Below, piece after piece: positions 10,944-51,584 of a DNA stretch of 64,000 nt. Positions within the stretch are counted from its first letter, which is position 1. Every line of letters starts with the position of its first letter. The position numbers and the translations under genes are program-made. Origin of the DNA: an uncultured Pelagibacteraceae bacterium (GTDB lineage: Bacteria; Pseudomonadota; Alphaproteobacteria; Pelagibacterales; Pelagibacteraceae); NCBI GenBank assembly GCA_902560815.1, contig CACENP010000003.1:22246-86245 (forward strand), in the 5' to 3' direction. The notes below the pieces were generated by a model. That model was not told the DNA's origin. It saw only the letters and a list, made by a program, of their open reading frames with translations, and searched no databases.

Positions 10944-12110
10944 TTATCTAAAAAAGTGAAAAAATTTTTCAAAAAAGCCTTTATTTTTTGATTTTTTTTG
11001 AAGGAAATTTACTTCCTGAAATTTCCCAGACTGATTAAAATTAAATCCTGAGTCACAAATTGAAGTTGTATTTTCTTCAAAAAAACTAATTTTGCTGAAA
11101 AAATCAAATTTTTCTTCTAGATAAATGGAATTATTATTTAATATTTTAGATCCTTCTCCAATAAATATCAAAACGCAAGTATCAATATTTTTAAAAAATT
11201 TGTTAAAATATTCATCAGCTAAATTTAATTTAATAATTTCATCAACTCTGGCATGTATAACCTCGTTTGATAAATCTGAAGAATTAAAATCATTTGTTTT
11301 ATGTTCTTTTTTTACAAATGTAGTTTCTGTTTGATTCAAATTTTTTTTTATAGTCTCAGCGTCTTCTAGATTAATTTTTAAAAGTATTGAGATATCATTA
11401 GTTATATGTTTGCCCCCAACTGGTAAAATATTAAAATATAATATTCTACTTCCTTGAAAAACAGTGATTGCACTTTTTCCATAACCAATATCTAAAATAA
11501 CCTTTTTATTAAACTCATTAAATAAATTGCTATAGTTGCTTGATCTTACATAGCTCGAGGAATACAAATTATCTATTGTTAAATAGTTTTTATTAAATCC
11601 ATCTTGTAGATATTTCCAAACTTTATTTGAAAAACATATAAACTTTATTTCTAGGATTAAATAATCATAATTAATTTCTTTTTTAGGGATTTCAAAAAAT
11701 TCATTATCGTCAACAATAAATTTTTTTACTATCATGTGGATTATTTTTTGATTATGGTAATTCTTTTGAACTAAACTTTTTGCTTCATTCAATAAAGATT
11801 TAATATCATTTGGTAAATTTTTTTTGCTATCAAAATTTTTTTTTATTGAAATATTTATTGAAAACATATCTGGGGTATCAATCATTAAATTAATTTTATT
11901 TATATGCTTTTCTATTTTTTTTTCTGCAGATTTAATTAGGCCTCTAATAATTTCAGTAGAATTATTTATATCAAATTTTTTTAAATTAAAATTTGAAACA
12001 CAATCTCTTTCTGAAATAAATATATTTTTTGAAGTTTCATTATCGTATGCTCCTAATCTTATTTTTGAGGATCCAAAATCTATAAAAACATTTAAATTTT
12101 TTTCATTCAT
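10944..12110 (-). CDS. ftsA: cell division protein FtsA (divergent)
   Basis: DFGSSKI and LDIGYGKS phosphate motifs, VGGKHITNDIS, C-terminal amphipathic helix GFFEKFFHFFR, position after ftsQ. Confidence 0.85.
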   Translation of the reverse strand: MNEKNLNVFIDFGSSKIRLGAYDNETSKNIFISERDCVSNFNLKKFDINNSTEIIRGLIKSAEKKIEKHINKINLMIDTPDMFSINISIKKNFDSKKNLPNDIKSLLNEAKSLVQKNYHNQKIIHMIVKKFIVDDNEFFEIPKKEINYDYLILEIKFICFSNKVWKYLQDGFNKNYLTIDNLYSSSYVRSSNYSNLFNEFNKKVILDIGYGKSAITVFQGSRILYFNILPVGGKHITNDISILLKINLEDAETIKKNLNQTETTFVKKEHKTNDFNSSDLSNEVIHARVDEIIKLNLADEYFNKFFKNIDTCVLIFIGEGSKILNNNSIYLEEKFDFFSKISFFEENTTSICDSGFNFNQSGKFQEVNFLQKKSKNKGFFEKFFHFFR

Positions 12111-19489: not shown

Positions 19490-20574
19490 TATCTTAATTT
19501 AAGAGTAGCAAGTCCTATCATCGCTAAAATAATTGATATAATCCAAAATCTAACTACAACAGTTGACTCGGCCCATCCCTTTTTTTCAAAATGATGGTGT
19601 ATTGGAGCCATTTTAAAAATTCTTTTTCCTGTTATCTTGTATGAAACTACTTGGACAATTACTGAAACTGCTTCTAAAACAAACAGACCTCCTGTTATAG
19701 CTAGAACAATTTCATGTTTTGTTATTATACCTACAGCTCCAAGAGAACCCCCCAGGGCTAATGATCCGGTGTCTCCCATAAATATTTTTGCTGGAGGTGC
19801 GTTAAACCAAAGAAAACCAATACATGCACCTATAATTGAACCACAGAACACTGCAACTTCTCCAACTCCTTGAATATATGGAATATGTAGGTATTCAGAA
19901 AATACAAGATTTCCTGTCACATAACTTATAAATGCAAAGCAGGATGCAACCAATATAACAGGAACTGTTGCGAGTCCATCTAAACCATCAGTTAAATTAA
20001 CAGCATTTGATGATCCAACAATTATAAATAGATAAAATGGAATAAAAAACCAACCAAGATTAATAACTAAATTTTTGAAAAAAGGAAAATACAAATTTTT
20101 TAATTCAGCCGAATTTACATAATAAGTTAAAATATATATTCCAATTAAAGCTATAATAATTTGAAAAATTATTTTAAATTTAAATGAAACGCCTCCAGAA
20201 CTTCCACTTTTTATTTTTTTGTAATCATCATATGCACCAAGAGCTCCTAGGCCACCAACAATTAATATTAAAAACCAATTATAAGGGTTTGATAAATCTG
20301 ACCATAATAATACTCCAGAAAAAATACCAATTAAAATTAGAATACCACCCATTGTTGGTGTTCCAATTTTTTTTACAATATGGTCCGTCGGGCCATCAGA
20401 TCTAATTGGGTTATGAATTTTTTTACTTGAAAAATAATTTATTATTGGATTTCCAATTAAAAAAACTATTAACATTGAAGTAAACATTGATAAACCAGTT
20501 CTTACTGTCAAATATCTAAAAACATTAAAGATAGGGTAGCTATCTACGAGGTTTGTAAATAGACTATACAACAT
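19489..20574 (-). CDS. mraY: phospho-N-acetylmuramoyl-pentapeptide transferase
   Basis: GTPTMGG, NAVNLTDGLDGLA, IFMGDTGS, MAPIHHHFE. Confidence 0.97.
   Translation of the reverse strand: MLYSLFTNLVDSYPIFNVFRYLTVRTGLSMFTSMLIVFLIGNPIINYFSSKKIHNPIRSDGPTDHIVKKIGTPTMGGILILIGIFSGVLLWSDLSNPYNWFLILIVGGLGALGAYDDYKKIKSGSSGGVSFKFKIIFQIIIALIGIYILTYYVNSAELKNLYFPFFKNLVINLGWFFIPFYLFIIVGSSNAVNLTDGLDGLATVPVILVASCFAFISYVTGNLVFSEYLHIPYIQGVGEVAVFCGSIIGACIGFLWFNAPPAKIFMGDTGSLALGGSLGAVGIITKHEIVLAITGGLFVLEAVSVIVQVVSYKITGKRIFKMAPIHHHFEKKGWAESTVVVRFWIISIILAMIGLATLKLR
20052..20083 (+). repeat. 32-bp segment of mraY that is copied, inverted, at 21141-21172
   Basis: aaccaagattaataactaaatttttgaaaaaa at 20052-20083 is the exact reverse complement of 21141-21172. 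Confidence 0.9.
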
Positions 20575-21097
20575 TAATTTTTCCTTTTTTTATATTTAAA
20601 GCAAGACTATTAAGACCAGTAGAATTAGAAGCTTTTATCATTAAATGATCATTATTATTTAAATCGTTTTTAATCAAATGATATATTTCGTTTTTATCTC
20701 TTAAAATTCGACCTCTTTTTTTTCTATCAATAGCATAAAAAGTTTCTTTTATGTCCCTTCCAATAACATAAACTTTTTTTATCGAAGTTTTATTGATAAT
20801 TTTAGACATTTTTTTGTGCAATTTTTTTGAAAATTTTCCAAGCTCGAGCATATCTCCTAATATTAAATATTTATTACTTTGATATTCTTTATCAAAATTT
20901 TCAATAGCAAACTTTAAAGAAAGTGGGTTAGAATTATAACTTTCATCAGTTAAATAAATTACTTTATTATTTAGCCTCACTTTTGATATGTCGCCTCGAG
21001 AAGGTGGTATTTTAAAGTTATAAAATAAATTTTCATTAATATTATTTAAATCATAAAATTCTGAAATTAAAGCTATTGATGCTAAAATATTATTCAA
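20564..21097 (-). CDS. murF: MurF C-terminal fragment (continuation of the interrupted murE-murF fusion)
   Basis: DESYNSNPLS, ILGDMLELG, MIKASNSTG; the open frame extends upstream (KNKTKSFLIKKNLHPYLNN) to the break near 21141. Confidence 0.85.
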   Translation of the reverse strand: MNNILASIALISEFYDLNNINENLFYNFKIPPSRGDISKVRLNNKVIYLTDESYNSNPLSLKFAIENFDKEYQSNKYLILGDMLELGKFSKKLHKKMSKIINKTSIKKVYVIGRDIKETFYAIDRKKRGRILRDKNEIYHLIKNDLNNNDHLMIKASNSTGLNSLALNIKKGKINVV

Positions 21098-21137
21098 ATA
21101 AGGGTGTAAATTTTTTTTAATTAAAAAACTTTTTGTT

Positions 21138-23432
21138 TTATTTTTTCAAAAATTTAGTTATTAATCTTGGTTTAATAAAAATTTTAGAATTAATTTTATT
21201 AGATATTATTTTTTTAATATATATATCCGATAAAGAATTTTTTTTGCTGAAAGAAATAACATTAATATTTTTTTTTAGTGCAATTTTTTTAATAAAATAA
21301 AAATAATCGTCATCTTGATTAAGTATAAGTTTTCCGCCTTCTGTTATATTATTAATGATTTCAGACTTTGCCTTTGCAATTCCTTCAAGACTTTTAAAAT
21401 TTTTAATGTGGGCATAAGATATATTTGTAATTATACCAAAATCTGGTTCTATTATTTTTGTCAAATAATCAATTTCACCCGCTTTATCCATTCCGGCTTC
21501 AAGAACTACAAATTTATCATTTTTTTTTACATTAAATAAACTTAATGGAACACCATATTTATTATTAAAGGAATTATTTGATTTTGTAGTTGACGCTAAT
21601 TTATTTAAACAGAATGCTAGTAAATCTTTTAAAGACGTTTTGCCTGAGCTACCGGTAATAGAAATAAAATTTGCATTTGAAATTTTTCTTACATCTTTAG
21701 ATGCATTAGTTAAAACTTTAAGCGTATTATTTATTTTAATTTTTTTTAATTTATTTAATTTTCCTAACTTATTTACTATTGCTAAAGAAGCGCCTTTTTT
21801 AATTGCTTCATCTGCATAATCATTACCATCATTTCTAGGGCCTTTAATTGCAAAAAAAACATCATTTTTTTTTATATTTTTTGAATTTATTGATGCTTTG
21901 TTAATTTTCATATCTTTGCTTAACGAGCTTAAATTACATTGTTCATGCAAGATATTTGCTTTCCAATTTTTAAATAATTTTTTATTTTTTAAATTAATTC
22001 CATTTAAAATACATTTTTTATCTGAGAAAAATTTTTTTTTACCTTTATATTCTTGATATATTTCATGACCCTTGCCAGCAACTACTAATATATCTCCTGA
22101 GCTTAAACTTTCTATTGCAACTTTTATTGCTTTTTCTCTCGAGGAAATTTCAACTAATTTATATATAGATATTTTTTTTTTTATTTGATTTCTTATTTTT
22201 TTTGGATTTTCATATCTTGGATTATCATCTGTTAAAAATATCTTATCACAATATTTATTTGCAATTCCACCCATGATAGATCTTTTTTCTTTGTCTCTAT
22301 CTCCTCCACATCCAAAAACAATTTTTATAGAGCTATGACTGAACTGTTCTTTTATACTTTCCAAAGTATGCTTTAATGCATCGGGCGTGTGAGCATAATC
22401 TAGAATTACTTTTGAGTTATTTTTTATATTGCCAATATTCTCAAGTCTTCCTTCAACAGCTTTAATTTTGCCAATTAACTCAATTATTTTGCTGAATTTA
22501 ATTTTGCTTTTACTTGCTGCTAAAGCTGCAAAAAGAAGATTTTTAACCTGAATTTTTCCAATTAAGTTTGTGTTGAATGAGTATTTTTTTTTATTAAATT
22601 CAATTTCTATTTTTTGAACATTTCCTAAATACTGATGTTTTTTTATTAATAAATTAGAATTTTTTTTTCCAATAGTTAGTGATTTTAGATTTTTCTTTAT
22701 ACAAATTTTTTTAAGTATTTTCGATTGAGAAATATCATTATCATATATTATACTTCCACCTTTTTTTGTAAGTTTATTAAATAATATTAATTTTGAATTT
22801 AAATAATCTTTATAAGTTTTATGGTAATCTAAGTGATCGCGAGATAAATTTGTAAAAATTGTTGTATCAAATTTTAATCCATTTAATCTATATTGTTTTA
22901 AACCATGGCTAGATGCTTCTAGAATAGTATTTCTTATTTTTTTTCTTTTTAATAGTGAGAGTGTTTTATGAATAGTGACAGAATCTAAAGTTGTATTATC
23001 TGTTAACTTATTATTATTATTAGTTTTTATGCCAAGAGTTCCAATTGAAGCGACCTTTAATTTTTTATTATTAAGTATTTGAAAATAGAAATTTGCTATT
23101 GAAGACTTACCATTTGTTCCGGTTACAGCAACTAAGTTAGCTGGTGTATTTTTATAATATTTTGAAGCGATTTCTGATACCAGTTTTCTAATATTTTTAT
23201 TATTAATAAATAAAATATTTTCTTTTTTTCCTTGAAAATTTAAGTCAGATACAATTGTTTTTGCACCATTATTAATCGCATTATTAATAAATTTATTTCC
23301 ATTTTTTTTTACACCTCTTATTGAAAAGAAAATATCACCCTGTTTACATTTTCTGCTATCTAAACTTAAATTATTAAATTTATGTAAATAATATTTTTTA
23401 GGTAAATTCTTAAATAATTTTCCAATGTACAT
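21138..23432 (-). CDS. murE: MurE fused to the N-terminal part of MurF; frame broken near 21141-21172
   Basis: MurE motifs VTGTNGKSS, EASSHGL, DYAHTPDAL, FGCGGDRD, DDNPR, AGKGHE; then MurF motifs ITGSSGKTS, SFNNKYGVPLS, EAGMD, AHI. Confidence 0.9.
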   Translation of the reverse strand: MYIGKLFKNLPKKYYLHKFNNLSLDSRKCKQGDIFFSIRGVKKNGNKFINNAINNGAKTIVSDLNFQGKKENILFINNKNIRKLVSEIASKYYKNTPANLVAVTGTNGKSSIANFYFQILNNKKLKVASIGTLGIKTNNNNKLTDNTTLDSVTIHKTLSLLKRKKIRNTILEASSHGLKQYRLNGLKFDTTIFTNLSRDHLDYHKTYKDYLNSKLILFNKLTKKGGSIIYDNDISQSKILKKICIKKNLKSLTIGKKNSNLLIKKHQYLGNVQKIEIEFNKKKYSFNTNLIGKIQVKNLLFAALAASKSKIKFSKIIELIGKIKAVEGRLENIGNIKNNSKVILDYAHTPDALKHTLESIKEQFSHSSIKIVFGCGGDRDKEKRSIMGGIANKYCDKIFLTDDNPRYENPKKIRNQIKKKISIYKLVEISSREKAIKVAIESLSSGDILVVAGKGHEIYQEYKGKKKFFSDKKCILNGINLKNKKLFKNWKANILHEQCNLSSLSKDMKINKASINSKNIKKNDVFFAIKGPRNDGNDYADEAIKKGASLAIVNKLGKLNKLKKIKINNTLKVLTNASKDVRKISNANFISITGSSGKTSLKDLLAFCLNKLASTTKSNNSFNNKYGVPLSLFNVKKNDKFVVLEAGMDKAGEIDYLTKIIEPDFGIITNISYAHIKNFKSLEGIAKAKSEIINNITEGGKLILNQDDDYFYFIKKIALKKNINVISFSKKNSLSDIYIKKIISNKINSKIFIKPRLITKFLKK
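21141..21172 (-). repeat. inverted 32-bp copy of mraY sequence at the murF frame break
   Basis: ttttttcaaaaatttagttattaatcttggtt is the reverse complement of 20052-20083. Confidence 0.9.
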
Positions 23433-26458: not shown

Positions 26459-27880
26459 TTAATTCTTTTGTCTTCTTAAAAATGCCGGAATATCTAAGTC
26501 GTCTTCTTCCAAATTATCAGTTTCTTCAGAAACTAATGTTTCGTTTGTTAAACTATCTTCACTTTCAGAATTAAAAAGCTCAGGCGTTTCCTCTTCAATT
26601 TCAAAATTTTCTAAACCATTAGAAACTTCTGGCTCTTCAACAATTTGGTTTTCTTCAATAATTGATTGCTCTGTTACTAAATTATTTGTAAGAACTTCGT
26701 TATCGTTTTGTTCAAATTGCTCAGTCTCATTAACTGTTTCTTCCTGAATTTCATTTTCTAGTTTTAATGCTGTGGCACCTTCTGAGATTGGTGCTGACAC
26801 ATTAGCCGAAAAATTAAATGATTGATGAGAATCAGAGTTTTGAAACTCAGAATAGCCTGGATTTCTATTTTGAATTCTATGTACCATGTTAATTACTGAT
26901 TTTGATTCAGGTTGTTGACCATCAAGAGCAGTAGCAACGATAGATACTCTCATTTTTCCATCAAGTGCAGGGTCTGTTATTGCTCCAATTATTAGTTCAG
27001 CTTCTGTATCAACTTCAGACCTAACTTTATTCACTGCTTCATCAACTTCAAATAATTTTAAGTCTTTACCGCCAGTAATATTAACTAATAATCCTTTTGC
27101 GCCTTTAAGGGTATAATCATCAATTAATGGATTGCTGATTGCCATTTCTGCAGCTTTTGAAGCTCTGCCCTCACCTTCGGCTTCACCAGTTCCCATCATT
27201 GCTTTACCCATTGCACTCATAACAGTTTCAACATCTGCAAAATCTAAATTGATCAAGCCAGGTCTAACCATTAAGTCAGTGATACTTTGAACTCCATGTA
27301 ATAAAACATTATTTGATAATTCAAAAGATTCTTCAAATGTTGTTTGTTCACTCGCAATTTTAAATAGGTTTTGATTTGGAATAACAATAATAGTATCCAC
27401 ATGTTTTCTAAGTTCCTCTAGGCCATGTTGGGCTCTTCTCATTCTAGATGGTCCTTCATAAAGAAATGGGAGCGTTACAACTCCTACTGTTAAAATATTT
27501 AACTCCTTAGCTGCTCGAGCTATAACGTGTGCAGAACCTGTACCTGTTCCTCCACCCATACCAGCGGCAATAAAAACCATGTTTGAACCTTGTAAACAAT
27601 TTACAATTTCATTTAAAGACTCGTCTGCCGCTGCTTGTCCTATATCAATTTTTGCACCAGCACCTAATCCCTTGGTTAAATTTAATCCAATTTGTATTTT
27701 AGTATGTGCTTTACTAAGTTTTAAATCCTGAGCATCAGTATTAACTGCAATAAATTCTACCCCTTGCATTCCTGCATCTATCATTTCATTTATTGCATTT
27801 CCCCCTGCTCCTCCAACTCCAAGAACTAGTATTCTTGGTTTCAACTCTCTAATATCTGGTTGTTTAAAATTTATAGTCAT
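26459..27880 (-). CDS. ftsZ: cell division protein FtsZ
   Basis: [18 protein letters not shown] tubulin signature, NLDFADV, acidic linker, C-terminal [11 protein letters not shown]; strong SD (aagggag). Confidence 0.98.
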
Positions 27881-31098: not shown

Positions 31099-31175
31099 TG
31101 GTGGGCGATCCAGGACTCGAACCTGGGACCAATACATTATGAGTGTACTGCTCTAACCAACTGAGCTAATCGCCC
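31099..31175 (-). tRNA. tRNA with CAT anticodon, most likely tRNA-Ile2 (lysidine-modified) rather than Met
   Basis: GGGCGATTAGCTCAGTTGGTTAGAGCAGTACACTCATAATGTATTGGTCCCAGGTTCGAGTCCTGGATCGCCCACCA; cloverleaf with encoded CCA; paired G1-C72 (not initiator); C4-G69 favours Ile2. Confidence 0.9.
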
Positions 31176-31237: not shown

Positions 31238-31266
31238 AGATCTGGGAGTTATATTCTCCCAGATCT
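31238..31266 (-). terminator. stem-loop downstream of the 47-aa ORF, likely intrinsic terminator
   Basis: perfect 11-bp stem AGATCTGGGAG-ttatatt-CTCCCAGATCT about 20 nt after the stop codon; U-tract is weak. Confidence 0.6.
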
Positions 31267-31287: not shown

Positions 31288-31431
31288 TTACTTTCCAAAT
31301 CCACCAGCAACTAAGTTCCAAACGGCAGTAAGAGCAAAGAAGCTAAACCACCAACCAGTAGCTGGCAAAATAAAACCTAGCATAATAACCTGCTCTATAA
31401 CACCAGCTATTATATATTGTTTCAAAGTCAT
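31288..31431 (-). CDS. unannotated 47-aa hydrophobic small membrane protein
   Basis: ATG..TAA frame MTLKQYIIAGVIEQVIMLGFILPATGWWFSFFALTAVWNLVAGGFGK; SD AAAGGA just upstream of the ATG; 5' hairpin and downstream terminator; below the ORF-track cutoff. Confidence 0.7.
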   Translation of the reverse strand: MTLKQYIIAGVIEQVIMLGFILPATGWWFSFFALTAVWNLVAGGFGK

Positions 31432-31535: not shown

Positions 31536-33101
31536 CTAATTACCTGCCATCCAAGAAATTAATGAACTTGAATTACTTGGATTACTTAAAGCATTTAACC
31601 AAATAATAAATAAAATACTTAAAATGTAAGAAGATAAACCATATTTTCTACTTAACAATTCAAGTTTATTACTTAAATTAAGATTTGTTTTTTGTAATCG
31701 AAAAGAAATTACACTTAAAAAATTTGGAATAGTGGCATACACGTAAGAAACTAATATAATCCAATCAAGTACTGTTAAATACTCTAATTTAGGCAATTCA
31801 GAATCGATCACAAAATTGTATGCGATTAATGATAACAGACAAACTATTGTTATAGTTAATCTGGCCTCTAATTCCTTCGGATCTACCCAAACTACTGACC
31901 AACAAACCATAAGAATCAAAAGCATAGGCAGAATAACTTTGAATATATAATAGCCATGTTTTCTCTCTACTTCTAACTCAATTAACATACCGCTCCAAAA
32001 AACATCTTCATTTGTTATTCTCTTTTCATCAATATTTTCAACTTTAGCAGATATTTTTTTCCATCCGGGTATATCATCTTTAGATAAATATTCGTCTAAA
32101 GCACGAAAAGTAAATGGACTTATTTCAAAAACTCTTGTGTCCAATGAATACTCAGCGTCGACTATTCTTATTTTTAAAGCTTGTCTATCAAAAGGAAAGG
32201 ACCTTAAATTAAAATCATTTAATATTTTAAAATTATTTTTAAAATTTCTTTGTATATTTAACTGATCTTCTTCACGGCCTTCTAATTTAGAATATAAAAA
32301 AATTTTATTTATATTTTTTTCAAAATCTACATCATTTTCAACTACATCTGGAAAATCAACTCCAGCTGGATCAGGTAATATTGAGTCTTCAAAATATTTT
32401 GCGCTAGGTGAACATATATGAAAATTATAACCCCCACTGCTTTTTTTATACCATAAAGATTCATTTGCTATATCTACAATTGGGTGTACTTCGTCGTCCT
32501 GGTAAAATTTAAAATCATAACGATATTCATATGAATTTTCTATTGATGCCGTAAAAATAGATTTTTTTAAATCTATGTCTATAATCTTTAAATCTCTTAA
32601 AGAGTGATATAGAGGTCCATAACTGTCCTCGGATCTTTGCAAATTAATAATCTTTTTCTCACCCTCTGCATTGATTATATCTAGATTTAATTCTTTAACT
32701 TCATCTTCATTTTCAATATACGCCCACCAATTATCCTCAACAATTTTTGATGCATCAATGCCATTTATTTTTAAAATTACATCTCCAGACTTAAGAACTT
32801 TTGCAGTTTCATTATTAAAAGTAAAACCAACCTTAATTTTCGTACCATCGGTATAAAAAGACCATTTATTTAACTCTTCATCATATTTATACGCGGGAGA
32901 AAAACCAAAACCATTTTCTTCATAGTAAGTATAAAAATTTTTAACCATAGGAATATCGCTTTTTTCAACATCCTGATAAAATTTATTACAAGCATACCTT
33001 TCGTCTCTAATTAAATTTTTATCCTCTTCTGCAAATAACAAATTTTGTAAAAATGTTATAAAAATTAAGTTAAGCAGTAATAATTTAAACTTTTTTTTCA
33101 T
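31536..33101 (-). CDS. pentameric ligand-gated ion channel subunit with N-terminal PDZ-like domain
   Basis: signal peptide; GFGF...LKSGDVILKING PDZ-like segment; Pro-loop FNLRSFPFDRQ; IPGW; four TMs (YYIFKVILPMLL..SVVW; LEARLTITIVCLLSLIAYNF; LPKLEYLTVLD). Confidence 0.88.
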   Translation of the reverse strand: MKKKFKLLLLNLIFITFLQNLLFAEEDKNLIRDERYACNKFYQDVEKSDIPMVKNFYTYYEENGFGFSPAYKYDEELNKWSFYTDGTKIKVGFTFNNETAKVLKSGDVILKINGIDASKIVEDNWWAYIENEDEVKELNLDIINAEGEKKIINLQRSEDSYGPLYHSLRDLKIIDIDLKKSIFTASIENSYEYRYDFKFYQDDEVHPIVDIANESLWYKKSSGGYNFHICSPSAKYFEDSILPDPAGVDFPDVVENDVDFEKNINKIFLYSKLEGREEDQLNIQRNFKNNFKILNDFNLRSFPFDRQALKIRIVDAEYSLDTRVFEISPFTFRALDEYLSKDDIPGWKKISAKVENIDEKRITNEDVFWSGMLIELEVERKHGYYIFKVILPMLLILMVCWSVVWVDPKELEARLTITIVCLLSLIAYNFVIDSELPKLEYLTVLDWIILVSYVYATIPNFLSVISFRLQKTNLNLSNKLELLSRKYGLSSYILSILFIIWLNALSNPSNSSSLISWMAGN

Positions 33102-33113
33102 ATTCTCTTCTTT

Positions 33114-34319
33114 TTAATTAAAAGCAGGTCCTTTAAGAAAACCGCCAATACCTTCTAAATTATAAAAATAAATTAACATTATTAATAAAATTGTAAAATA
33201 ACTTACAGGACCTACAAACTGAGCATATCTATCAACTACACTAAGATCTCTACCTGATTTAAGTTTTCTAAGGAATGAATAAACACAGAGAATAGTTGCT
33301 GTCCCTGTATAAAAATACGACAAGAGTATAAAGCAATCTAAAAAAGTTAAGTAAGATAATTTTGGAAGATCTTCATCAATTATAAAGTTATAAGCAATTA
33401 AAGATAATAAACATACTATTGTTACATTGACTTTGGCCTCTAATTGAGAACCTCTAACCCAAAAAACTGACCAAGAAATCACAAGTATAAATAAAATTGG
33501 TAATATTATTTTAAATAAGTAGTAAGACGTTTGTCTTTTGATTGTTAAATCTAGATAAAATCCCTGATATGGTAACTTATCATTGTCAACATAATCATAG
33601 TTATAATAATCTACTTTTTCTAAATCCCAACCTGGAATCTGGATATCACCATCTGTAAAAAAAAATTTGGTTTCTTTATAAACTGGCATTGAAATAGGTT
33701 CTGGAGCTATTTCAACAAGTGTGGATGGAAATTCAGACCATAATTCAAAACTCAATACCTGAGTATCAAATGGAAAGCGTCTAAAATCAAAATTAGCAGA
33801 AAACTTTGCGCTATCTCTTAATCTTGTTCCAACCATTCCATCACTATAAATGTCAACCCAATCAGCATCTCCTCCAAGATTAACGTTTGTTTTTGATTTT
33901 TTATTGTAAAATTCTATTGTTGGATAAAACAATCTATTTGCTTTGCCCCATAATTCTATAGGATTATAAGTACATAAGTAAGTTCTTTTTCCTGTATCAT
34001 CAAACAGGTTAAATTTTTTCAAAGTCTCCGTTAATCTTTTTTCTTTCCAATCATGCCACATAGAATAAAAAGCTTCAAACTCCATTTCTTTACCATTAAT
34101 TTCAAATATTTTTTCTACAAGTAAATCAACATAAACTGTTACAGGCTCTTCAGAAATATAGTCTGGATTAGGATAATTCATAGATTCTAAAATATTATCG
34201 CATTCTTCACGACTTATATTAAAATCTGGATATTTATATATATTCATTGAATGACTTAAACTGAAAATATTTGTAAAACAAAATACAAAAAAAATATAAG
34301 TTAAAAATTTATTTTTCAT
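33114..34319 (-). CDS. pentameric ligand-gated ion channel subunit (GLIC/ELIC-like)
   Basis: signal peptide; PVTVYVDLLVEKI, FYPTIEFYN (loop A), FDFRRFPFDTQ Pro-loop, IPGWDL, KRQTSYYLFKIILP (M1), LEAKVNVTIVCLLSLIAYNF (M2), LPKLSYLTFLD. Confidence 0.92.
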   Translation of the reverse strand: MKNKFLTYIFFVFCFTNIFSLSHSMNIYKYPDFNISREECDNILESMNYPNPDYISEEPVTVYVDLLVEKIFEINGKEMEFEAFYSMWHDWKEKRLTETLKKFNLFDDTGKRTYLCTYNPIELWGKANRLFYPTIEFYNKKSKTNVNLGGDADWVDIYSDGMVGTRLRDSAKFSANFDFRRFPFDTQVLSFELWSEFPSTLVEIAPEPISMPVYKETKFFFTDGDIQIPGWDLEKVDYYNYDYVDNDKLPYQGFYLDLTIKRQTSYYLFKIILPILFILVISWSVFWVRGSQLEAKVNVTIVCLLSLIAYNFIIDEDLPKLSYLTFLDCFILLSYFYTGTATILCVYSFLRKLKSGRDLSVVDRYAQFVGPVSYFTILLIMLIYFYNLEGIGGFLKGPAFN

Positions 34320-35659
34320 ATATTAATAATTTTATTTGCAACTAGAACTCCACTATTATGTGCACCTGCAACTGTACCCCACTCTTTGGCTGTTGCTTCA
34401 CCCGCAAAATATATTCTATCTCCAACTGAGCTTCTTAAGATTTCTCTATATTTAAATGCACCTGGTTCAGCAGATGCCCATGCTCCCATAAATAATGGGT
34501 TTGATGACCAATCAACTGCATGAGATTTAATCAAATCTTTATCGATCTTATTACCAAAAATTTTCTTTAATTCACTTACACCAAAATCAACAGAGGCTTC
34601 TTCACCTGATTTTAATAATTCTTTTCCAAAGTCTCCTCCAGGATCGCACATACATAATTTAGAGTCAGATGGATTTATTGTGATACCAAAACCTTCTGGT
34701 GATTTAGCATTTTGACTATTAATTTTATAATATAAATATGAATCTTTAGCCTTTTTCTTAAATAATTTTTTAAATTTAAAAGTAAGTCGATTGTAATGAC
34801 CCATGGATATTTTAGAAAATGACTCTTGTTTCTCAGTAGATAAATCAGGTGAAAATTTAATTTGTCCAGAATTTAAAACTCCGGTAGAAACAGTTATAAT
34901 ACACTTATTTGATTTGATCTCTCCTTTGTTAGTTATAACTTTTACACCAGCTCCACTCCAATCTATTTTGTTAACTTTGGTATTGAATTGAACAGGAATA
35001 TTTTTAAACATATCAGTTATTAATGAACCATAACCTTCTTTACAATGCCATGGTGCAGACTCAGGAATTTCATAATCATAATTAAAATCTTTACATGAGT
35101 AATTTGTAAAATCTTTACCCATCTCCCACGCTCCTATAATCATGTGAAAAGTATCAAACCAATGATGATCTTGATAAGGAGCCACTTCTGATGGCGAAAC
35201 ATCTTTTCTAGTTTTTGCAATTCCAGCTTCTATGCCATCAAAAACTTTCCATATTTCACCATCATTCGAAATTCTTTTTTGTCCACTATAAAGAGCATAC
35301 ATTTCTTCTGATCTTTCTTTGTACAAATTAAAATTTGAATTTTTTTCACCGAATAACTTAAAAGGATTTGTATCTCCATTATCTAACCATAATGCACCAA
35401 GATCATAAGGTTCACCAAAGATTTCATTATCGGTATAGGCTCTTCCCCCAATTCTGTTGGATGCCTCTAAGCAAATAACTTTTTTTCCATTTTTAATTAA
35501 TTCAGATGTGGCAGCTAAACCAGCTGCTCCTGCACCTATAACAACAACATCATAATTTTGATCGGTGCTTGCTTTAATTAAGTTTGGAAATGATACTAAA
35601 GTTAATCCAGTTATTGAAAATTTTAAAAAACTTCTTCTTTTATTAAACTTTCTTTTCAT
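34316..35659 (-). CDS. Tat-exported flavin monoamine oxidase family protein
   Basis: twin-arginine signal KRRSFLK; VVIGAGAAGLAA FAD motif; LEASNRIGGR; DLGA; C-terminal FAGEAT..GTVAGAHNSG. Confidence 0.9.
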   Translation of the reverse strand: MKRKFNKRRSFLKFSITGLTLVSFPNLIKASTDQNYDVVVIGAGAAGLAATSELIKNGKKVICLEASNRIGGRAYTDNEIFGEPYDLGALWLDNGDTNPFKLFGEKNSNFNLYKERSEEMYALYSGQKRISNDGEIWKVFDGIEAGIAKTRKDVSPSEVAPYQDHHWFDTFHMIIGAWEMGKDFTNYSCKDFNYDYEIPESAPWHCKEGYGSLITDMFKNIPVQFNTKVNKIDWSGAGVKVITNKGEIKSNKCIITVSTGVLNSGQIKFSPDLSTEKQESFSKISMGHYNRLTFKFKKLFKKKAKDSYLYYKINSQNAKSPEGFGITINPSDSKLCMCDPGGDFGKELLKSGEEASVDFGVSELKKIFGNKIDKDLIKSHAVDWSSNPLFMGAWASAEPGAFKYREILRSSVGDRIYFAGEATAKEWGTVAGAHNSGVLVANKIINI

Positions 35660-36326
35660 ATTCTCTTTTTTTTTTTCTTTGGGTTTTTTTAAGTCTAGAA
35701 AACATTCTTAAAGCAACTATCCATGAAATTAAAATTAATAATAATGAAATATAATAGTTTGAACTTAAAAATAAATTATAACATCCGTGTAGAACAAAAG
35801 GCACAATGAATGCAAATAACAAATTATCTTTCTTTTTTATAAAAGAATATTTCATAAAAAAATACCCCATAAACACTCCAAAAACTGCATGTGCGGGAAT
35901 TGCCGAAAAAGATCTCCCAATTGCCATAGCCATTGATGTTGTTTCATAATAATCTGCGAGCAAATACACGTAATAAATATTCTCTAAAGTTGCAAAACCT
36001 AAAGAAACAGTAATTCCATAAACAATACCATCGATTGGTTCGTTAAAATCCTTCATCTTATAAACAAAGAAATATAAGACAGCTAATTTTAAACTTTCTT
36101 CAACTGGTGCAGCTGTTAGAAATGACGAAATAAGACCTTCACTTGCATTGGTGGAATACCATATTTCGCTTAAATAGGTATTTAGGAAGTAGGCTGGTAT
36201 TGTTATTAAAATCCCATATAAAAATACTTTTATTATTTCTTTCGTTGGTTCTTTAAATTTGTCTGAAAAAACAAATATAAAAACAATTAATAAAGATGGA
36301 AAAATTGTTACAAATAATAAATTCAT
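35643..36326 (-). CDS. PrsW-family intramembrane protease
   Basis: DKFKEP, APVEESLK (EExxK), DGIVYG..LGFATLEN (FxxxEN), PAHAVFG, LHGCYN (HxxxN); multiple TMs. Confidence 0.9.
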   Translation of the reverse strand: MNLLFVTIFPSLLIVFIFVFSDKFKEPTKEIIKVFLYGILITIPAYFLNTYLSEIWYSTNASEGLISSFLTAAPVEESLKLAVLYFFVYKMKDFNEPIDGIVYGITVSLGFATLENIYYVYLLADYYETTSMAMAIGRSFSAIPAHAVFGVFMGYFFMKYSFIKKKDNLLFAFIVPFVLHGCYNLFLSSNYYISLLLILISWIVALRMFSRLKKTQRKKKREYEKKV

Positions 36327-36787
36327 TAACTTCTTTCGATTGTTGTTTTAATTTTTAGAATTTTATTTTCTAAAGCTTCAAATGATTCAAATATTTCTTT
36401 TTTTTCAACAGCTGAAATTGCTTTACCTTTATGTCCTTCGTCACTTTTTGCAGAATTAATAACATCCATTAATTGTCCGTGAAGAATTGTAAATTTGATC
36501 AGTAATTCACTTAAATTTTCTTGATCAGTCTCAATTTTTTTTAGTTCCTTTAAAATTATATATTCATGAGCTCTCAATAAATAAGGTGTTAAACCTCTCT
36601 CTACACATGCTCTATCAATTTTAACTGCGTCTCTGTGGTCTAATTGTTGATCTAAATCTGGATCACTACATTTTCTAATAAAAGATTCGCTTTTTCCAGT
36701 GACCTCTTCAATAACATTTGATTTCAAGTCTTTTATTGCTTCTGATAAACCACGTTCAATTGAAGATATTTCTCTAATCTTAGCCAT
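36326..36787 (-). CDS. putative HTH regulator resembling phage regulatory protein CII (CP76/YmfL) family
   Basis: IEEVTGKSESFIRKCSDPD helix-turn-helix-like segment followed by a helical C-terminus (HGQL..I..ISAVEKKEI); resemblance from memory, not searched. Confidence 0.55.
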   Translation of the reverse strand: MAKIREISSIERGLSEAIKDLKSNVIEEVTGKSESFIRKCSDPDLDQQLDHRDAVKIDRACVERGLTPYLLRAHEYIILKELKKIETDQENLSELLIKFTILHGQLMDVINSAKSDEGHKGKAISAVEKKEIFESFEALENKILKIKTTIERS

Positions 36788-36816: not shown

Positions 36817-36855
36817 TGGACAAATAAAATCTAATTAAATCTGGATTTGTCCAGA
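36817..36855. promoter_or_regulatory. inverted repeats in the divergent intergenic region, candidate operator
   Basis: TGGACAAAT (36817-36825) N19 ATTTGTCCA (36845-36853), overlapping palindrome TCTGGA-N4-TCCAGA (36840-36855). Confidence 0.45.
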
Positions 36856-36925: not shown

Positions 36926-37219
36926 ATGAAAAAAATGAAAACATTAATAGCATCATTTGTAATATCAATTGTTGCAATCTCATCAGCATCAGCTGCTTGC
37001 TTAAGCTGGAGCTGCAGTTCCTCGAATTGGGATAACAGTTCGTTGAACTATAAAAACAGTCCCTTAAATTGGGATAATAGTAACTTGAACTGGAACAATA
37101 GTAATTTAAATTTGAATAGAAATAATGGAATTTATGATACTAACGGAAATAGTTTAGGTTATACAAGCAATGGTAATATATTCAGCGATAGCGGTTTAAG
37201 ACTTGGATATTTTGACTAA
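36926..37219 (+). CDS. secreted Asn/Ser-rich heptad-repeat protein
   Basis: signal peptide ending ASA; repeats [W/Y]xNSxLN; two C-terminal (I)(Y/F)xxxGxxLGY hairpin-like units; SD GAAAGGA. Confidence 0.8.
   Translation: MKKMKTLIASFVISIVAISSASAACLSWSCSSSNWDNSSLNYKNSPLNWDNSNLNWNNSNLNLNRNNGIYDTNGNSLGYTSNGNIFSDSGLRLGYFD
37025..37108 (+). repeat. four imperfect 21-bp tandem repeats encoding the 7-aa repeats
   Basis: aattgggataacagttcgttg / aactataaaaacagtccctta / aattgggataatagtaacttg / aactggaacaatagtaattta. Confidence 0.75.
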
Positions 37220-37655: not shown

Positions 37656-37730
37656 TGGTGGGCCGTGTTGGTTACGCTCCAACTACCCCTGCAATGTCAA
37701 TGCAGTACTCTACTATTGAGCTAACGGCCC
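37656..37730 (-). tRNA. tRNA-Val(GAC) with non-canonical D- and T-loops
   Basis: GGGCCGTTAGCTCAATAGTAGAGTACTGCATTGACATTGCAGGGGTAGTTGGAGCGTAACCAACACGGCCCACCA; all four stems pair; anticodon loop TTGACAT; encoded CCA. Confidence 0.88.

Positions 37731-50383: not shown

Positions 50384-51584
<1,201 letters not shown>

Follow-up and report, generated by a model that had tools for sequence, protein, structure and literature searches.

The window analyzed here, a 64,000-nucleotide stretch of DNA from an uncultured Pelagibacteraceae bacterium of the SAR11 group, carries at positions 31536 to 36787 a block of five minus-strand genes that proved to consist of two separate units, within a SAR11 island bounded by tRNA genes, rather than one fixed machine. 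The first unit is a flavin amine oxidoreductase of 447 residues (34316..35659; hereafter the oxidase), followed by a pLGIC (pentameric ligand-gated ion channel) subunit of 401 residues (33114..34319), the short channel. The second consists of a CII-like transcription regulator (cii; 153 residues, 36326..36787), a PrsW-family intramembrane protease (227 residues, 35643..36326) and a PDZ-bearing pLGIC subunit of 521 residues (31536..33101), the PDZ or long channel. A first-pass annotation, made from the sequence alone, had called the two subunits channels A and B. The explanation that we place first, and to which we would give a little less than an even chance, is that an amine-gated channel and an exported, amine-clearing flavoenzyme have been inserted into a cassette of CII, protease and PDZ channel. 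A periplasmic amine would open the short channel, and the exported flavoenzyme would stop or curb the signal by oxidizing that amine. The pair would be the fixed core of a flexible island cassette, the PDZ channel, with its PDZ domain and variable outer domain, would be a sensor of peptides or of damage to the envelope, each channel would form its own homopentamer, and both units would be expressed from one promoter controlled by the CII-like protein.

The pairing of oxidase and short channel carries this explanation. In genomes, oxidases 81–90% identical to that of the window lay directly upstream of a short channel at all six loci (6 of 6), which represent at least four contexts: tRNA-Met, tRNA-Leu(TAA) and no fewer than two others; PrsW and cii lie near in all six and the PDZ channel in four. 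The metagenome sample comprised the best 80 of 139 short-channel loci, 17 of them with no upstream open reading frame (ORF), and the oxidase is the upstream gene in 43 of the remaining 63 informative loci. Dereplication of 92 loci at 90% gave 30 clusters with the oxidase only, 1 mixed, 12 without the oxidase and 7 uninformative. Wherever both genes were present (51 of 51 loci), the oxidase stands immediately 5' of the short channel with a gap of −32 to +10 nt, and around this invariant pair PrsW, cii, a DUF805 gene and the PDZ channel shift in place and strand. A tree placed the 43 channel-linked oxidases on one side, apart from seven stand-alone SAR11 oxidases (40–45% identity) that adjoin transporters or catabolic genes, with no channel within the flanking DNA that was fetched; channels shorter than 375 residues and oxidases shorter than 430 were left out of the pair trees. 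Residues particular to the channel-linked enzymes include E119, D141, W178, H205 and W427. The oxidase-channel link proved to be conserved far beyond the genome of the window in the gene-neighborhood survey that the first-pass annotation had proposed, although the short channel occurs without the oxidase in 20 of the 63 loci.

Three other ideas about the pair were set aside. The oxidase had appeared to be a one-off passenger (2 of 35 loci) in a sample dominated by PDZ channels; the later counts of 6 of 6 and 43 of 63 loci replaced it. No channel-enzyme fusion was found among 5744 long candidates, which is weak evidence. Against a viral origin, relatives of the short channel and of cii were both missing from viral contigs, where the oxidase has relatives at 25–39% identity only; cii, channel or PrsW was found at none of 130 viral loci (120 matches to the operator pattern described below and 10 oxidase loci). 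At one locus (L110), two different PDZ channels lie upstream of a single oxidase-short channel pair.

The outer domain of the short channel has been replaced as a block between cassettes by recombination. Among 15 close cassettes, the outer domain falls into deep allele types and the oxidase is near-identical. Relative to locus L065, the DNA of the window is 83–97% identical in the oxidase bins beyond the signal region and 46–71% identical in the outer domain; relative to L066, it is 97–100% identical in the outer domain and 75% at the 3' end. The synonymous divergence (dS) between L066 and L104 is 0.25 for the oxidase, 0.36 for the pore and 1.10 for the outer domain. Within an outer-domain type, the ratio of nonsynonymous to synonymous divergence (dN/dS) is mostly 0.05–0.2, and both oxidase and short channel are under purifying selection. 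The available part of one earlier paper suggested that new receptors could arise by such recombination, a question it deferred to future work (PMC4795631); the SAR11 loci show the exchange of outer domains taking place in nature. They also offer a set of naturally varied outer domains, on a pore that hardly changes, for structure-function work.

Both channels have a β-sandwich outer domain, four membrane helices and the Pro-loop signatures of pLGICs, and score 95 and 101 bits with NCBIfam LGIC_1 (NF033918), under its curated cut-off of 500. The short channel is recognized by Neur_chan_LBD (PF02931, E 6.3e-12), and its best sequence matches are sTeLIC (6FL9, E 1.5e-34) and GLIC (E 4e-30, and E 5e-27 in a match over residues 52–388). 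Its invariant columns include the Pro-loop F182-P183-F184-D185 (FPFD), R262 before M1, P274 in M1 and P319 between M2 and M3. In the prime numbering of pore residues, a GLIC-like E-A at the inner mouth is followed by V6', L9', A13' and F16', and because of these residues the short channel is probably cation-selective. The FPFD Pro-loop and the E-A inner mouth are shared with sTeLIC and GLIC, both of which are pH-gated and about 20% identical; in contrast to them, the short channel has an additional helix at its N terminus with an invariant pair of cysteines (C40 and C116, in 52 of 52 short channels, also those without the oxidase) and a conserved aromatic pocket.

The pocket was located by counting from two landmarks of the ELIC sequence, the FPFD aspartate and the arginine before M1, together with the GLIC alignment, and is lined by W88, E136, W194, E196, Y243, D247 and Y251. 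E136 is equivalent to E77 of loop A in ELIC, and Y243 and Y251 to its two loop C aromatics; according to the available part of PMC3119659, amine binding and gating in ELIC both depend on its pocket residues. In 36 dereplicated oxidase-linked channels, the pocket positions, W88 and D247 included, are kept in 34–36 (position 136, E in 34 and D in 2; position 243, Y in 34 and F in 2; Y251 in 36). From this pocket we infer an amine as the ligand of the short channel, which may work like ELIC but was not filed as an ELIC orthologue. An amine-type pocket, in keeping with the amine ligand supposed in the first-pass annotation, is kept in the short channel but not in the PDZ channels. ELIC of Erwinia/Dickeya is likewise a prokaryotic pLGIC beside a small-molecule amine enzyme and also has L9' and F16'. 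It differs in lacking Val at 6' and in its loop B, described below; its operon decarboxylase would make an amine, whereas the SAR11 enzyme, predicted to be exported, would oxidize one, and the pairing seen here is conserved over dozens of variants.

The oxidase matches Amino_oxidase (PF01593) with E 1.3e-43 and 150 bits against a cut-off of 19.8, and carries the invariant GxGxxG, GGR, GA-x-W and FAGE motifs. Its model (mean confidence, pLDDT, 80) superimposes on LSD2 with a template-modeling (TM) score of 0.83 and on maize polyamine oxidase with 0.78; over these two, NicA2 and the monoamine oxidases the scores are 0.66–0.83, with the flavin adenine dinucleotide motifs and an aromatic cage residue (W394) in common. 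The N terminus carries KRRSFLK, a match to the consensus motif for twin-arginine translocation (Tat), followed by a hydrophobic stretch. This feature sets the SAR11 enzyme apart from those relatives. The arginine pair is present in 50 of 50 homologues and tatC in the same genome, and export of the oxidase through the Tat system is predicted. A cytochrome c gene lies beside NicA2, but none was seen beside the SAR11 oxidase. At five loci (L072, L073 and L075–L077), the neighbors of stand-alone twin-arginine oxidases from this subfamily are either transporters of the tripartite tricarboxylate type or a cluster resembling creatinase and amidinotransferase genes (names read from sequence), a possible clue to substrate.

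A number of observations weigh against the explanation of an amine-gated channel with an amine-clearing enzyme, and they are gathered here. The oxidase is just 20–23% identical to any solved enzyme. Its Arg291 aligns to the flavin-side lysine of the family (K300 of maize polyamine oxidase, a lysine position also in LSD2); R or H occupies this position in 50 of 50 homologues (R in 40 and H in 3 of the 43 channel-linked enzymes), and K was found in 1 of 120 wider homologues. In the available part of PMC12272882, the flavin-side lysine is said to favor reactivity with O2, and cytochrome c dehydrogenases are among the family's members. Because of these two points, the enzyme may be a dehydrogenase, and "oxidase" may be wrong in detail. 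In loop B of the short channel, W194 and E196 stand for E131 and F133 of ELIC, with acid and aromatic exchanged. Among 16 channels without the oxidase, E136, E196, D247 and Y251 are present in all 16 and Y or F at 243 in 12; the pocket is nearly as well kept without the enzyme, and therefore the channel does not need it. The oxidase tree, the outer-domain tree and the pore tree are mutually rejected in approximately unbiased (AU) tests run with 5000 replicates (the program recommends 10000), and oxidases 85–93% identical are paired with channels merely 56–65% identical; there is therefore no lock-and-key co-evolution. The overall Mantel correlation between oxidase and channel distances is rho 0.50 over 41 pairs. 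Outer-domain exchange cuts both ways: the pair survives replacement at its own junction, and enzyme and sensing domain are not one-to-one co-evolved. The metagenome loci were found by way of the channel and not the oxidase, on contigs that are mostly short, and the gene upstream in 20 of the 63 informative loci is another one (a MORN-type membrane protein and others). An oxidase of this kind was present in none of 20 channel loci from other Proteobacteria (20 of about 38 places sampled; 4.6–14.5 kb fetched), and therefore the pair, which has in effect one origin, may owe its adjacency to inheritance. These 20 loci also have no PrsW, trypsin or caspase nearby.

It is accordingly an appreciable, minority possibility that oxidase and channel are co-travelling island genes that became neighbors once and have since been regulated and transferred together as a cassette, without any chemical connection of the two. 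Restriction of the pair to one lineage, spacing that is the norm of the genome, incongruent segment histories, and channel relatives that keep the pocket without the oxidase are all as this alternative would have them. Against it, nothing separates the pair in any of the 51 loci while all other island genes are shuffled, and the adjacency holds over oxidase identities of 48–96% and through repeated outer-domain replacement at the junction.

The direction of the chemistry could also be reversed, with the enzyme making the signal and the pair reporting an amine nutrient: a product of the reaction (a shorter amine from a polyamine, an aldehyde, ammonium, or peroxide acting on C40 and C116) would gate the channel. 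Polyamine oxidases, which release smaller amines, are among the nearest folds, and the cysteine pair is invariant. A decarboxylase next to ELIC has also been proposed to make its ligand (PMC3119659, in the part available). Yet fast peroxide production is less likely for an enzyme that has no flavin-side lysine, and retention of the cysteines in channels that stand apart from the oxidase is as expected for a structural disulfide. We regard the production of the signal as rather unlikely.

In the preferred explanation, the clearing of an amine by the enzyme, enzyme and channel would share a substrate. The natural ligands and roles of these channels are an open question, and a conserved enzyme partner makes the ligand directly testable. 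A more far-reaching description, which we hold to be doubtful, is that the pair is a bacterial counterpart of the synaptic receptor and its degrading enzyme, with a sensing domain exchanged as an allelic module, under a domesticated phage CII and together with a PDZ-capped channel and a protease. If that is true, to identify the substrate of the enzyme would be to learn, for the first time, which natural ligand a prokaryotic pLGIC has. No description of a channel-amine oxidase pair was found in the literature searched, which mostly excluded subscription papers. SAR11 cells are non-motile, and so the idea of a role in chemotaxis, found in the available part of PMC549065 for prokaryotic pLGICs, hardly fits them. 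The pLGIC neighbors listed in that part are of the binding-protein, Cache and antiporter types, and oxidase, PDZ and peptidase were not matched there. One sentence in the available part of PMC4795631 names Pelagibacter among the carriers of pLGICs.

The second unit is more widespread than the first. PrsW matches PF13367 with E 1.7e-36 and 126 bits (cut-off 23.5) and NF033739 with E 2.5e-42 and 145 bits, under the equivalog cut-off of 225; the protein has EE, HA-x-F and LHG, which we take to be the paired-glutamate and two histidine motifs of PrsW. The PDZ channel matches NF033918 with E 7.7e-29, its model (pLDDT 77.9) aligns to GluCl, sTeLIC and GLIC with Z scores of 22–23, and F302-P303-F304-D305, R380, P392 and P437 are invariant columns. 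The PDZ match of this channel is weak by profile (E 0.027), but the model fold bears it out: residues 61–161 in the periplasmic part (32619..32921, minus strand), taken from the whole-chain model, align to five PDZ entries, among them CtpB, Deg2, Prc and 3ch8, with Z 8.9–10.6 and root-mean-square deviations (rmsd) of 2.4–2.9. The values are Z 10.4, rmsd 2.9 and 90 aligned residues for 3ch8, and Z 9.5, rmsd 2.5 and 88 aligned residues for CtpB (4c2c). Pfam PDZ is detected at E ≤0.1 in 4 of 14 aligned PDZ-channel members. The outer part of the PDZ channel is hypervariable, with 20–47% identity in the outer domain between near relatives against 56–86% in the pore, and has no conserved orthosteric pocket. 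DeCLIC (6V4A), the best profile match of the long channel, is likewise bacterial and likewise has an extra domain at its N terminus, in the periplasm; the differences are the PDZ fold of the SAR11 domain and the hypervariability of the whole outer part.

In a quick tree from which channels under 300 residues were left out, all 29 channels of three clades near those of the window have a PrsW or trypsin-like protease within 3.5 kb, compared with none of seven distant channels. The PDZ channel occurs in most family genomes without the short channel, often with trypsin-like or caspase-like proteases in place of PrsW, and the commonest family layout is a caspase-like protease, a trypsin-like protease, cii and the PDZ channel, without the oxidase. 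Two further distant SAR11 pLGIC clades (L057–L064) have no protease neighbors. In 16 family loci (L041–L056), signal-peptide caspase-like (C14) and trypsin-like proteases lie with cii and a PDZ-type channel, among neighbors that include TerB, a nuclease, Sel1 and a second PrsW type. In a genome of another alphaproteobacterial family (G606, locus L213:5976-7827), cii lies 1 nt upstream of a long pLGIC of the PDZ-channel type, with a related inverted repeat upstream, in the reverse arrangement.

A scar suggests that the first unit was inserted into the second in the genome of the window. A 31-nt sequence at the PrsW end and oxidase start (35643..35673) is repeated directly, at 94% identity, at the start of the PDZ channel (33085..33115), where it is read as the remnant of a PrsW/PDZ-channel junction. 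The repeated sequence is that of the PrsW end, which overlaps the PDZ channel by 17–20 nt in eight loci and the oxidase in five. Since the repeat occurs at the start of both oxidase and PDZ channel, the simplest reading is that the oxidase and short channel came to lie between PrsW and the PDZ channel.

The first-pass annotation had suggested that the five genes could be one complete signaling module, and the survey upholds this in part. All five genes occur in 10 of the 51 oxidase-channel loci, where PrsW is present in 38, the PDZ channel in 22 and cii in 18. Nine of the 51 are long, with at least 4 kb upstream and 1.5 kb downstream; PrsW and cii are present in 9 of 9 and all five genes in 7 of 9, in varied order and strand. 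The combination does recur, but it is not a fixed module: the order is shuffled, PrsW and CII come as different subtypes, and the PDZ channel is mostly found without the oxidase. Among 300 family genomes, many of them incomplete, matches were found in 32 for the short-channel query, 37 for cii, 34 for PrsW and 8 for the oxidase, and channel, cii, PrsW and oxidase occur together in one (G194). After removal of one genome with a weak PrsW match (G101, E 3.8e-5), cii shares a genome with the channel in 20 of 37 cases (3.9 expected) and PrsW in 20 of 33 (3.5 expected), counts in which kin are not independent; for the oxidase, the count is 1 of 8. The five-gene set is a rare, flexible-island cassette and not something that streamlined SAR11 genomes keep in general.

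The strongest form of the integrated module, in which both subunits co-assemble as a heteropentamer within one five-gene machine, is very improbable. The counts from the long loci speak for it, as do the pore helices, which are identical over 13 residues (TIVCLLSLIAYNF) and make co-assembly sterically plausible. On the other side, the PDZ channel accompanies 22 of 51 oxidase loci only, is missing from two of the nine long loci, occurs in most family genomes without the short channel, and is present in two different versions beside the single pair of L110.

The coordinates of the five ORFs and their junctions (overlaps of 1, 17 and 4 nt, then 12 nt between the two channels) were confirmed, but the tight coupling that had been read as an operon sign is what chance alone would give here. 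Co-directional ORF pairs have a median gap of 3 nt; 67% of 682 pairs are spaced by 12 nt or less and 34% overlap. Spacing was therefore rejected as evidence of coupling, and it is the recurrence of the genes together that exceeds chance. Each of the five is a single copy in the 1.1-Mb assembly. The oxidase/short-channel junction is spanned by metagenome contigs (X5 record 29, with nine differences, and X1 record 5), and that between cii and PrsW by another (X1 record 7), X1 being possibly the source sample; the assembly is therefore not chimeric at these two points. A promoter scan returned 30 sites versus 38 expected, no more than background, and one RNA run gave scattered short contigs that speak neither for nor against expression.

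The profile searches proposed earlier returned the expected identities for PrsW, the oxidase, the pLGICs and the regulator, the last just under its cut-off: Phage_CP76 matches with E 1.6e-5 and 25.3 bits against 26, and the G194 orthologue scores 31.1 bits. The regulator also matches phrog_101 (E 1.3e-5) and has an Atlas feature score of 0.98 to the CP76 cluster; no solved relative was found by sequence. In line with the dedicated regulator of the first-pass annotation, a likely operator, the inverted repeat TGGACAA-N23-TTGTCCA (36817..36853), lies 29 nt 5' of the cii start. It is the sole site in the genome at one mismatch or fewer (0.06 expected per window at two or fewer), and both half-sites, with a variable spacer, are kept in 7 of 8 loci of the same CII subtype. 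A 168-residue cii subtype has a different repeat, CCGTAGG-N16-CCTACGG, upstream in seven loci (L065, L066, L067, L069, L070, L083 and L105), and no inverted repeat was found upstream of the CII subtype divergent from PDZ channels. The repeat at 36817..36853 is likely the site of the CII-like protein. CII of phage 186, a CP76 protein, recognizes an inverted repeat whose half-sites are separated by two turns, according to the available part of PMC6593788; the half-site distance is 30 bp (three turns) for the window subtype and 23 bp for the 168-residue subtype. Phage 186 CII is degraded by the membrane proteases FtsH and RseP (PMC7708051, in the part available), and therefore control of the CII-like protein by the neighboring PrsW is a plausible guess by analogy. 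In contrast to the phage system, no phage genes or integrase were found among the island ORFs with profile libraries, which cover described systems only.

Protease control of CII is also one reason to consider defense or envelope stress, in which the channels would depolarize the cell on phage attack or damage, the proteases and CII would be the trigger, and the oxidase an accessory. The hypervariable outer domains of the PDZ channel are of this kind, and so are the neighbors, which include trypsin-, caspase- and CHAT-type proteases, TerB, a nuclease and restriction-modification-like genes (the last read from sequence). However, no model of PADLOC, a library of described systems, matches the channels, PrsW or cii; the short channel and cii have no relatives in viral contigs; and a conserved small-ligand pocket with an exported oxidase fits chemical sensing better. 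We consider defense improbable for the block, less so for the PDZ unit than for oxidase and short channel.

The island is bounded downstream by tRNA-Met(CAT) (31099..31175, minus strand) and upstream by tRNA-Val(GAC) (37656..37730, minus strand), which lies behind rpoD and marks the same site in G194 and L092. In the main text of PMC11796062, as far as available, SAR11 flexible genomic islands are tied to tRNAs and have no canonical mobile elements, in which the present cassette resembles them; that text gave no match for "ion channel", "amine oxidase" or "PrsW". A terminator-like hairpin with an 11-pair stem (31238..31266; a consensus match only) lies 3' of the cassette, and between it and the PDZ channel is a hydrophobic ORF of 47 residues (31288-31431, minus strand) that is 85–91% identical in at least 11 other tRNA-Met-site loci. 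Divergent from cii is a small secreted-type ORF of 97 residues with 21-nt tandem repeats (36926..37219, plus strand), whose match to Pfam beta-flower (E 0.004) is below the cut-off. It is a possible target of CII activation; its slot is taken by other genes in relatives. Elsewhere in the window, where names were read from sequence, ftsZ (26459-27880) lies between mraZ and rsmH and not behind ftsA (10944-12110), the same order as in G194. A MurE-like ORF of 764 residues followed by a 177-residue piece (20564-23432) resembles an interrupted MurE-MurF fusion, and an aminotransferase-like gene (50384-51572) is split into two parts of 194 and 163 residues.

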